Part shown: positions 56,261 through 59,756 of the stretch, in pieces
How positions within the stretch are numbered: position 1 is the stretch's first letter
Layout: the number at the start of each line of letters is the position of its first letter
Virus record (IMG/VR): IMGVR_UViG_2974638963_000001
Span: 1 to 64,000 of that record
Strand: one strand, 5' to 3'
DNA from: a virus
Taxonomy: Duplodnaviria > Caudoviricetes
DNA: 64,000 nucleotides
Notes under the pieces: model-generated
The model's input: only the letters and a program-made list of their open reading frames with translations
Told to the model about the DNA's origin: nothing
Database searches by the model: none
Program-made: the position numbers and the translations under genes

Positions 56261-56362
56261 AATTTAGAAAGTGGTGGGAAATTTGGCTGTTCAAATAGGA
56301 ACCACCACCCCGATTTATAAAAATTTCTTGCAATCGTCGAAAACTTTTGTTATAATATATTC

Positions 56363-56905
56363 ATAGTTTGGAAATTCTTAGGCGTTTAAGAAAAGCGCCT
56401 AACGATTTGTAAACTCTAGATTGATTTACATTTGTCACTCAGTATGTATCCGGTTCGTGGGGCAACCCCAACGTAGATAACGCTGATTATCTCTAACCAC
56501 ATAAATTCTTAACTAGTTCGACAGCTATAAAGCTGGCTTTGCTACCTGAAATCCGACCTGTTGTGCGGTGTAGTCTTATGAAGTCTCTTCGGAGAAAACC
56601 ATGTTGTCATAGGGCTAGGGTAACGATAAGAACGCGGTCAATTAAACTTCTCAGAGGATGTAGGTTCGCCCTGTCTTCGGAGCACACCTGCTTAGCGGCG
56701 AATCATGAGGTGGCGTGCGAAGTTTATGTAGACTAGCAATAGCAGTCCGGCGGAGTGAGACCAAAGGCGTATAGTGAGAATAAGAAGAGAGTGTATGTGG
56801 TTAGGATGTTTTCTTTTTCGAAAGAACTCGAACAAAAAGTAAGTTGATTGTATTTGCTAGGTGAACCCTCGGGCAACTGACATAGTAACTGAACAAATCT
56901 TAGAG
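56363..56905 (+). ncRNA. candidate ~540 nt structured RNA/leader upstream of the origin-binding helicase
   Basis: promoter TTGCAA-17-TATAAT (56328-56356); nested stems with GCAA and UUCG tetraloops. Confidence 0.7.
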
Positions 56906-56975
56906 CATAACTGTTCCCTGGCTAAACAGGATGGACAGGATAATTGTAACCTTTTAACTATAGGAGTAACTCTAC

Positions 56976-59756
56976 GTGTTCACGATTTTAGAGGGACATG
57001 AGGGGTGGACAAGAGATCAAGCAACCGGTAACTGGGTTCCGTCTAACGAGGACTTCGTGTTTGCTAAAGAATTCTCTGAACAGTTTCCAATGGGTAAACC
57101 TCACTCACTTCCAACCAAGTTTAATGTTGTGAATGAATATGACCCAAAGACACTCCCTGAAATGATGGATTTATTAAAGTTAATTACAGCTAACCCTCAA
57201 TGGATGGTTATTCGTGCAAAACCGAAGGCAGCTCGACGTGCAATTTATAGACGTAAAGTGAATTTCGAAACTTCTAATAAATCTAATATAATCGCTATCG
57301 ACGTGGATGATTTTCCACTTCCTGACGATATATCTCCGTTTGATATTGCCGCCCAAGGACGTTACGTTCTAGGCATCCTTAATTCAATTAGCGAGGAGAT
57401 GTTCCCATTAGATGCAGGTTTTATTGCACATGCATCGTCTTCTGCTGGTATTAAGTCTGGTATTCGTCTGCATATGTTCTTTCAGACTAATATTCCAGTA
57501 ACTCAAGGACAATTGAAATTCACGTTCTCATCTATTAATGAATCTTCACGAGAAAAATATAATGGAGTTAACGTAATTGACTTGGCTTATTACTCAGCTG
57601 TTCAGGCACATTATTTTGCCGACCCAATTTTCAAAGCCCCATTTAAAGATCCTTTCAAACAGGAGAAAGTCGCACGTCTGAGATTTGTTTCCGGTGGAAC
57701 AATAAATATGCCAGACAATGTGCCAGACTTTGAGTCTACTAAGGGGGAGTTTAAAGAGGAATTTTACTCTTTGTTAGATCAAATTAAAGGAAAACGTTCA
57801 ACATCAGATAAGGTTGAGCGAATCATTGGAGAACTGGAAGATGCAGAAGATGGTGTTTATCTTCGTATAATTCCCAAGTTATATCACAATGCACTAGAAG
57901 AGGGTATAGATCTAGCATGGCTAGAAAAGGAAATTACTCCAGCATTGTCTCTATATGTAGCACATAAAGACAACAGAAGAACTATTCAGGAATACTTTAC
58001 CAACGGTCGTAAGCAGGCTTTGAAAGCTTTTGTAAACAACTCTAAACGAGAGATACCGTTAAACTTAAAAGGCGTTCCAATTAAGCAGTTAGAAACTAAC
58101 TCTGCTGAACAGGATAGATTCTTAAAGTTAGATAAATTACCACCCGAAGGATCAATGACATTTGTTAAGTCTAGCCTGGGAACTGGTAAAACAACAGCTA
58201 TTATTAAATGGCTAGATTCTGGTATGATTGATGGGGGATTCCTAGCAATCACAAACACTCGTGCCTTAGTTTCATCAAACGCAAAGAAATTCACGTCTGG
58301 TCAATATAACAAATCTATTGATATGTTAGACTTTAAGAGAGGTGGATTAACTAGAATGTCCTCAACGATTCACTCTATTCATAAATTCAAGGGTTTAGTT
58401 GATAAGGTTGACTTTGTATTTATAGATGAGGCAGATGCGGTAATGAATGATTTATTATTTGCACCTGTTGTTAAGAATCGCAGACAGTGTATCGAAACGT
58501 TACGTGACCTTTTATTAAATGCGAAACATGTAATTTTATCTGATGGTGATATCAGTGCAGAAACCGTAGAAGCCTATGGTAGTCTTATAGATTTTGATAA
58601 ACCAATTAATTTCTTTAATCATCATCGTCGAATGTTACAAGGTGCTCAAGCATATGAATTCTCAGATGCAGAGTCGGTCTGGGTCGCTTTTCAAACTTCA
58701 TTAGAAATGGGTGAGAAGTCAATCATAGTAACAGACTGTGGGCCTGCAGAATTAGGTGAACGTGGTATTGCTTTACGAGAAGCCACTGGTTGTATAGTTA
58801 AAGAGATCCATTCCAACTCAACCGAAGACCCTGACATTCGCAAAATACTAGACTATACTAATGAAGAACTTATCAATCAAAATGTTCACGGATTATTATG
58901 TAGTCCATCAGTAACTAATGGAGTTGACTGGAACTATTTTGATAACGTATTCTTATTGACTTTAACGCCTAATCAAGCCCCAAACATGCGATTCCAGGCA
59001 TTACGACGAGATCGTGGAGCACAGACTTTCTATTTCTATACAGATAAGTCAACAAGTGGTTTCGATGCAGGTTCTACTCAGTATAATGCTGAGGAAGGGT
59101 GGCTAGATGCTAGTCAACAATCTTATGCAAGACGTAGGGAAACTGAAAGTCGAAACTATGCCTCAACTTTAAGATATTATTTATTAGACCAAGGCGCTAC
59201 TATTGATATCTTTACAGAAAGTTGGGGTAAAATGGAATCGGCGGCGGATGTCTATAAAGAAGAAAGGGTTAACGCTATCTTATCATCTCTACCAGATTAT
59301 ACTCCTTTACGTCACAATGATGCTTATGATGCTAAACTATTACTGATGTCTTATTATCATATTGATAAACTATCAGAAGTAACCAGAGAACTAGCGGAGT
59401 CATTTGTAGAACAGAAGCCCAACGAGAGAGCAGAGTTCTTTCATAAGGTAGTAGATTTACTGTGGCCGGCAATAAAGAAATGTACTAGCGTTTCGGTAAC
59501 TCCACTAGCAGAGGCATTAAAGAAACATAAACGAGAGTTCTTCTTATTAACTGGTCAATCGGCTCAGGCTAAATATACTCGTAAATATCTAGGAATGATG
59601 GGAATTGGTAAAGATCTTGACCTTGAGAACATCAAAGACTGGTATAGAACCTATTGTAAAATAGAGGGTATACAGTTGCATCCCGATTTTATGACAGATA
59701 AAGAGCGTTCTCTATATGAAGAGGCTAGTATGGATTTGAGGTTCGATGATGAGTAA
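56976..59756 (+). CDS. obp: replication origin-binding protein / primase-helicase-like (SF2)
   Basis: DVDD and RLH N-terminal motifs, SSLGTGKT, IDEAD, QALRRDR; 926 aa; T5 synteny. Confidence 0.85.
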   Translation: MFTILEGHEGWTRDQATGNWVPSNEDFVFAKEFSEQFPMGKPHSLPTKFNVVNEYDPKTLPEMMDLLKLITANPQWMVIRAKPKAARRAIYRRKVNFETSNKSNIIAIDVDDFPLPDDISPFDIAAQGRYVLGILNSISEEMFPLDAGFIAHASSSAGIKSGIRLHMFFQTNIPVTQGQLKFTFSSINESSREKYNGVNVIDLAYYSAVQAHYFADPIFKAPFKDPFKQEKVARLRFVSGGTINMPDNVPDFESTKGEFKEEFYSLLDQIKGKRSTSDKVERIIGELEDAEDGVYLRIIPKLYHNALEEGIDLAWLEKEITPALSLYVAHKDNRRTIQEYFTNGRKQALKAFVNNSKREIPLNLKGVPIKQLETNSAEQDRFLKLDKLPPEGSMTFVKSSLGTGKTTAIIKWLDSGMIDGGFLAITNTRALVSSNAKKFTSGQYNKSIDMLDFKRGGLTRMSSTIHSIHKFKGLVDKVDFVFIDEADAVMNDLLFAPVVKNRRQCIETLRDLLLNAKHVILSDGDISAETVEAYGSLIDFDKPINFFNHHRRMLQGAQAYEFSDAESVWVAFQTSLEMGEKSIIVTDCGPAELGERGIALREATGCIVKEIHSNSTEDPDIRKILDYTNEELINQNVHGLLCSPSVTNGVDWNYFDNVFLLTLTPNQAPNMRFQALRRDRGAQTFYFYTDKSTSGFDAGSTQYNAEEGWLDASQQSYARRRETESRNYASTLRYYLLDQGATIDIFTESWGKMESAADVYKEERVNAILSSLPDYTPLRHNDAYDAKLLLMSYYHIDKLSEVTRELAESFVEQKPNERAEFFHKVVDLLWPAIKKCTSVSVTPLAEALKKHKREFFLLTGQSAQAKYTRKYLGMMGIGKDLDLENIKDWYRTYCKIEGIQLHPDFMTDKERSLYEEASMDLRFDDE

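Follow-up and report, generated by a model that had tools for sequence, protein, structure and literature searches.

The ColE1 pre-primer RNA II is a promoter-driven folded RNA of ∼550 nt, the structure of which governs replication and in the action of which RNase H is involved. Long autoregulated leaders precede E. coli rne (∼360 nt) and form the operators of phage T4 genes 32 and 43, and RNase III stalks are present in rRNA precursors, in the λ N leader and at the T7 early mRNA sites. Large ornate RNAs such as GOLLD, ROOL, OLE and raiA are free-standing genes and not leaders. T5 is a classic model phage; in the public records of more than 500 sequenced T5-like relatives, the gap in front of the replication-initiator helicase gene (obp, or D2) carries nothing, a promoter or spurious short hypothetical ORFs. 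The T5 protein D2 is a characterized bipolar SF2 helicase with a predicted helix–turn–helix; it is regarded as the likely replication initiator, and no DNA is made by amber mutants (PMC3632103). The origin of the lactococcal phage c2 is described as non-coding DNA over which the first early promoter directs transcription, and it is suggested that the origin depends critically on the length and structure of the transcript (PMC7150918). The same account distinguishes three origin types with no mutual similarity, chimeras of which are dead.

The window analysed here (the whole stretch of 64 000 nucleotides) is T5-like in character, with 25 tRNA genes and a stretch that matches Providencia phage PSTCR5. 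Its obp gene is separated from an upstream ORF of 107 aa by a gap of 715 bases (56261–56975). The features of the gap and the gene are as follows.

56273–56310, plus strand: hairpin GTGGTGG...CCACCAC at the end of the upstream gene block, read from the sequence; context, outside the RNA.
56328–56356, plus strand: early σ70 promoter, TTGCAA-17-TATAAT with a TG extension; consensus match, predicted start at ∼56363.
56363–56975, plus strand: whole untranslated leader RNA, ∼613 nt, with the folded part at ∼56363–56940; no real ORF, terminator or Rfam family.
56365–56415, plus strand: P1, 5′-terminal stem-loop, −22.3 kcal/mol, p = 0.003 (folding, shuffle test).
56439–56485, plus strand: P2 hairpin domain with cap GGGG-CAA-CCCC and family motif GUAUCCGGUUCGU (T5: GAUACGGAACAGU); weak thermodynamic support.
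56488–56510, plus strand: P3, 5′ strand of the long closing helix (folding and comparison).
56555–56639, plus strand: core arm A, long hairpin 56571–56581/56607–56617 with cap UCUC-UUCG-GAGA; predicted, segment identical in PSTCR5.
56643–56726, plus strand: core arm B, 84 nt, helix UAAACUU/AAGUUUA around two hairpins; homologous arm in all lineages, model hit, covariation.
56650–56682, plus strand: hairpin B1; compensatory changes relative to PSTCR5.
56685–56712, plus strand: hairpin B2, CACCU/AGGUG flanking a mini-hairpin with GCUUAGCGGC at 56690–56699; flanking helix covaries in nine lineages.
56728–56750, plus strand: core arm C, small predicted hairpin containing CUAGCAAU.
56787–56808, plus strand: P3, 3′ strand (folding and comparison).
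56809–56910, plus strand: genus-specific 3′ extension with hairpins 56817–56832 and 56838–56858, the most variable stretch relative to PSTCR5 (folding, PSTCR5 comparison).
56911–56938, plus strand: last hairpin, CUGUUC-CCUG...CAGG-GGACAG, overlapping a 13-mer variant at 56910–56922 (folding, comparison).
56962–56978, plus strand: Shine–Dalgarno sequence AGGAG (56962–56966) and GTG start of obp (56976), read from the sequence.
56976–59756, plus strand: obp, 926 aa, Pfam Herpes_ori_bp match; 64% identical to T5.108 of T5 (D2 replication-initiator helicase homologue).

In a BLAST comparison with 50 697 phage records PSTCR5 (Demerecviridae, Priunavirus) was the sole match to the leader stretch, with 94.4% identity, and the within-genus comparison made here is that of the window with this one other phage. 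IMG/VR, a metagenome scan and a genome scan yielded no leaders from closer relatives. Public assemblies contain Obp relatives of 73–83% identity (P0002–P0004), as well as one that is 97% identical (P0001; window 56976–57687), the annotated start of which adds 38 residues at the N-terminus (964 aa); this longer start, which would fall inside the leader, is probably mis-called. At the position equivalent to the 56273–56310 hairpin T5 has an annotated terminator, and the window hairpin was not flagged as a terminator by a consensus scan. The word CCACCCCGATTT at 56304–56315, directly 5′ of the −35 box, is the 3′ side of this upstream hairpin.

A preliminary description of the region had proposed a promoter followed by an ornate RNA, and all the elements it named were found where it had placed them. 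The promoter is present at 56328–56356 and is near-consensus. A terminator scan found no terminator-like site between it and obp, so that in physical terms the obp message begins with this RNA as its 5′ leader. Searches of the window and seven homologous loci with Rfam 15 (including group I/II introns, RNase P, GOLLD, ROOL and riboswitches) gave nothing at gathering thresholds and only noise (E ≥ 5) at E-value thresholds. The leader contains no iterons or tandem repeats, only two-copy repeats of 9–15 nt. Its GC content is 0.43, compared with 0.38 in obp, and it is not AT-rich. One coding candidate, a 65-aa ORF at 56539–56736, was rejected as a gene: it has a TTG start and no Shine–Dalgarno sequence or other ribosome-binding site, and the 12 nucleotide differences from PSTCR5, in which a frame of 65 codons is also open, produce six radical residue changes with no third-position bias.

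Taken as a whole, the region folds only modestly better than shuffled sequences (z = −2.7 for the plus strand and −1.5 for the minus strand), and the structure is therefore to be judged by comparison with relatives. The 5′ hairpin originally placed at 56378–56402 pairs 56378–56387 with 56393–56402 (10 bp) and extends to the limits of P1. In P2, the PSTCR5 change G56482A preserves the pair with U56443. The two strands of P3, first noticed as an 11 bp pairing (56493–56503/56794–56804), form a near-continuous duplex of ∼21 bp that encloses ∼276 nt and closes a core of ∼290 nt, and it is the counterpart of a closing helix in every related lineage. Differences between the window and PSTCR5 leaders are concentrated in two patches. 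Twelve substitutions fall within 56653–56684, 11 of them inside hairpin B1, which is kept in PSTCR5 by three compensatory double changes (G–C to A–U twice and A–U to C–G once), with one mismatch repaired and one pair lost. The 8-mer CUAGCAAU of arm C is also found in the leader of Klebsiella phage Roth37. Tetraloop-type hairpins are present as described earlier, namely GGGGCAACCCC (56459–56469), UCUC-UUCG-GAGA (56584–56595) and CUAGCAAUAG (56733–56742); the UUCG at 56676–56679 was rejected as a loop, as it is the 3′ strand of the hairpin that covaries with PSTCR5.

Towards the 3′ end the picture is more mixed. An outer pairing of 56414–56446 with 56881–56905 is predicted as proposed (−16.2 kcal/mol), but its support is weak and it is absent from other lineages; in PSTCR5 it has −16.0 kcal/mol despite seven changes, but in a shifted register. 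The 13-mer noted at 56910 is a one-mismatch copy of CCTGTNCCCTGGC, which occurs ten times in the window with at most one mismatch (0.07 expected), spread over 9822–38399 and at 56910–56922; nine of the ten copies are on the plus strand regardless of the local gene direction, and no exact copy is present in 65 loci from relatives. Conserved masking of the obp ribosome-binding site was not seen: local hairpins around AGGAG are weak and differ between lineages.

About 55 further loci from relatives were fetched for comparison. T5 and phages of Klebsiella, Vibrio and Aeromonas all have a gap of 600–1600 nt without genes in front of obp. Nearly all Markadamsvirinae, together with several Vibrio phages, have a consensus promoter on the same strand 470–790 nt before the start codon. 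The window leader has no BLAST similarity to any of these loci beyond the promoter, and MAFFT alignment across genera fails outside the promoter and a 10-mer. The shape is retained nevertheless. Each of the eight lineages compared has a stem-loop directly after the start site, with a sequence unrelated from one lineage to the next (Fisher p = 7e-11). The closing helix P3 (20–35 bp) lies at a fixed distance from the 10-mer (∼−200 and +100 nt) in nine lineages; its strands are at −197 to −181 and +98 to +114 in the window and at −206 to −185 and +106 to +125 in T5. The shuffle-test floor (p ≤ 0.0033) was reached for P3 in eight of the nine lineages (Fisher 8e-13).

The 10-mer, GCUUAGCGGC, occurs in exact form only once in the window (56690–56699) and is exact in T5, a second T5-type lineage, the L14 type, the metagenomic locus L065, Roth37 and Pectobacterium phage DU_PP_V. 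Variants in Pectobacterium phage My1 (ACUUAGCGGU) and Proteus phage PM135 (CCUUAGCGGG) show complementary changes at both ends of the word, and the closing pair of the mini-hairpin covaries between G–C, A–U and C–G. The helix that flanks the 10-mer is present in each of nine lineages and never has the same sequence (Fisher 5e-4). The surrounding arm B is 81–96 nt long in all lineages. In arm B of T5 and of a 92% identical relative (L026) the eight differing positions are exactly four compensatory pairs and nothing else. In an alignment of eight arm B sequences 91.5% of cells are paired, compared with 69% for shuffled sequences and ∼40% with the partners slid out of register. Both sides have changed in 22 of the 28 pairs, a figure that none of 500 shuffles matched; the alignment was fitted to the model and leans towards the model structure, but the margin is wide.

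Covariance models of arm B were grown in three rounds from the T5-type, L14-type, Roth37, PM135 and DU_PP_V sequences, with the window and PSTCR5 excluded throughout. Two lineages kept out of the models as a check, L065 and L033, gave matches where the arm was expected (E = 0.015 and 0.038). With the second- and third-round models (R2 and R3) the top match in the 64 kb window on both strands (128 kb) is 56644–56725 (15.3 bits; next 11.5). The E value of 0.3 is not significant alone, but the rank and the coordinates coincide with the independent prediction of arm B. The Vibrio and Aeromonas relatives keep a gap of 370–1600 nt and often the promoter; the arm B model found no match in them. Aeromonas phage vB_AdhS_TS3 (L007), to which the model gave no score, has a gap of 1590 nt with two CUUAGCGG words ∼1112 and 868 nt before obp, the first of which sits in a perfect CCCGAAAA/UUUUCGGG hairpin; they may mark a remote version of the element, or a duplicated one.

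The T5 D2/obp leader is the closest counterpart for a point-by-point comparison. It shares with the window RNA the promoter type and position, the 5′ stem-loop, the P2 motif, a long helix that closes a core of ∼290 nt, an exact GCUUAGCGGC at the same distance from this helix, the two-hairpin arm B (81–96 nt) and a last hairpin after UGUUC; both T5 (CUAUUC/GAAUAG) and Roth37 (CUAUC/GAUAG) have this hairpin at the same place as the window. The window RNA differs in being ∼120 nt longer, with the 3′ extension and the genus-specific outer pairing, and in its sequence: the covariance-model score is only 15 bits, and BLAST detects nothing outside the promoter. Four T5-like loci (L020, L035, L043 and L042) have leaders that are ∼100 nt longer (592–616 nt), with the extra piece located after the first 48 nt or as a duplicated promoter-proximal segment, so that the 5′ end of the RNA tolerates insertions. 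The linkage to obp on which the preliminary description had staked its proposal holds, as the RNA is conserved upstream of obp homologues in at least six genera.

Several observations concern the strand and the molecule that are under selection. The arm B alignment contains invariant or frequent G·U pairs, and the L14-type closing helix has four. The minimum free energy is 20–50 kcal/mol lower on the plus strand than on the minus strand in all eight lineages tested. Together with the promoter at a fixed distance from P1, these features argue for a plus-strand RNA and not a DNA structure. From comparative sequence analysis we conclude that the plus strand of the region gives a genuine structured RNA, promoter-driven, conserved and linked to obp, which is what the preliminary description had supposed on the grounds of tetraloops; the tetraloops are real, but the covariation, not the tetraloops, is the strongest evidence. 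The three functions offered in that description, a primer or origin RNA, an RNA partner of the 926-aa protein and a regulatory leader, are all compatible with the sequence. The same comparison places the window RNA, as the Priunavirus representative, in an as yet undescribed family; its members are large structured RNAs that form the 5′ leader of the T5-like obp/D2 mRNA.

The variation within the T5-like phages is itself structured. The T5 and L026 leaders are 95–99% identical, whereas the flanking genes are 59–90% identical. Near-identical T5-like phages carry one of two core types, T5-type and L14-type, in leaders of 495 and 497 nt; the cores cannot be aligned, while the leader ends and the DNA on both sides are 90–100% identical. 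In all 32 T5-like loci compared (L002/L014 and 30 others; obp nucleotides 1–1600) each core type comes with its own variant of Obp residues 1–430, and the C-terminal half of Obp is 97–100% identical in all 32. This co-segregation fits a partner or an origin role for the RNA, and a matched RNA–protein or DNA–protein pair, but it may also record a single recombination event, since only two clades and adjacent DNA are involved.

Our preferred reading, to which we assign a probability of about 0.4, is that the leader controls the initiator in cis and is processed, and that a protein may bind it at the invariant loop. The RNA would act in cis and at the RNA level to set the amount of initiator made. 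P1 would protect the 5′ end, and the P3 duplex would serve as an RNase III-type processing stalk, and a cut in it would release a stable core RNA from the obp mRNA. In structure, P3 has the format of such a stalk, with about two turns of near-continuous duplex and at least 20 bp in all lineages. Like the known RNase III stalks, it is a duplex of a size suited to RNase III, made by the sequences on either side of a folded RNA in the layout of the rRNA stalks; the P3 helices differ in containing small internal loops, and the likeness is structural only. The invariant loop would be a protein docking site. A search of the leader and of obp nucleotides 1–300 gave no conserved pairing partner for it, which suggests a trans-acting ligand. 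The leading candidate for the protein is Obp itself, through its N-terminal half, and control would then be autogenous. The leader shares with those of rne and the T4 operators a cis-acting fold before a dosage-sensitive nucleic-acid enzyme and a stabilizing 5′ hairpin, but it is much larger and more branched and its ribosome-binding site is outside the conserved structure. At 500–600 nt it is far larger than known autogenous operators, which weighs against autogenous control, and simple translational occlusion is unlikely because the Shine–Dalgarno sequence is not sequestered in any conserved way.

The readings that compete with a control and processing leader differ mainly in where the RNA would act. 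It could be a replication-origin transcript, an early-promoter RNA that is held in an R-loop or processed (the phage is said to encode RNase H) and that primes the leading strand or opens the DNA for loading of Obp; its fold would then decide hybrid formation by analogy with ColE1 RNA II or c2 PE1-T. We regard this as unlikely, but as the main alternative. The region directly adjoins the initiator gene, the equal-length but unalignable T5- and L14-type cores travel with the N-terminal type of Obp in a c2-like pattern, the leaders show a stronger G>C skew (+0.10 to +0.24) than obp does and a purine-rich run lies directly 5′ of the 3′ strand of P3. Against these stand the double duty that the RNA would have to perform as obp mRNA, with no terminator in between, the lack of iterons and, given the GC content of the leader, of an AT-rich unwinding element. 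ColE1 RNA II also differs from the leader in that no counterpart of the antisense RNA I is seen here and the transcript continues into a protein gene. The c2 PE1-T transcript of Ceduovirus resembles the leader in being an ORF-free early-promoter transcript with several dissimilar types, but the origin of c2 functions with no help from phage proteins, and it does not form the leader of an initiator gene (PMC7150918). Phage c2 is an unrelated phage of Gram-positive hosts, and there is no sequence or fold homology with the leader. The multiple internal origins reported for T5, in work cited in PMC3632103, also count against an origin transcript. A stand-alone stable RNA, with the core cut out at P3 to act in trans as a host-factor or defence decoy, sponge or scaffold and with the position before obp providing only strong early transcription, is rather improbable in our view. 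Its size and ornate fold are like those of free-standing large RNAs, the closing helix is like rRNA-releasing stalks, several other unclassified structured RNAs are present in the same phage and the invariant loop lacks a partner nearby. GOLLD, ROOL, OLE and raiA are similar in size, in their many covarying helices and in phage association; however, no Rfam model matches the window RNA, which is a leader. Against a stand-alone RNA count its constant position and orientation before obp throughout the lineages that have it, the lack of a second copy elsewhere in the window and the link of its core type to the Obp type.

Two further explanations deny a role to the RNA altogether. An origin or protein-binding region that functions only as duplex or single-stranded DNA, with an incidental RNA fold, would agree with the adjoining origin-binding-type helicase and its predicted helix–turn–helix, but is highly improbable: compensatory changes maintain pairs across ∼300 nt, the G·U pairs would be mismatches in DNA and A·C on the other strand, folding is asymmetric between the strands, the promoter is conserved at a fixed distance from P1 and there are no repeated binding sites. 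Almost no credence can be given to a hidden small protein gene (the 65-aa ORF) or a drifting spacer. The frame does remain open in PSTCR5, but its TTG start lacks a Shine–Dalgarno sequence, its substitutions do not follow a coding pattern, six-frame comparison revealed no shared peptide between the cores of different lineages and the leader is better conserved than the neighbouring genes between T5 and L026.

In a bolder proposal, which we consider doubtful, the replicon would be defined by a type-specific RNA–protein pair, made up of the leader core and the N-terminal half of the helicase. The RNA, cut at the long helix or held in an R-loop, would recruit Obp made from the same transcript to the adjacent DNA, and switching of core types would resemble that of plasmid incompatibility groups. 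If this is true, the core types (T5-type, L14-type, Priunavirus-type and others) would act like incompatibility groups among co-infecting T5-like phages. The copy in this Providencia phage is the most divergent member found so far, and its divergence reveals the invariant features of the family: P1, P3, the paired hairpins of arm B and the GCUUAGCGGC loop. An RNA of 500–600 nt stands before an essential initiator helicase gene with a shape that is kept over at least six genera while its sequence turns over, and this conserved fold provides a concrete handle on replication initiation in T5-like phages or its control.
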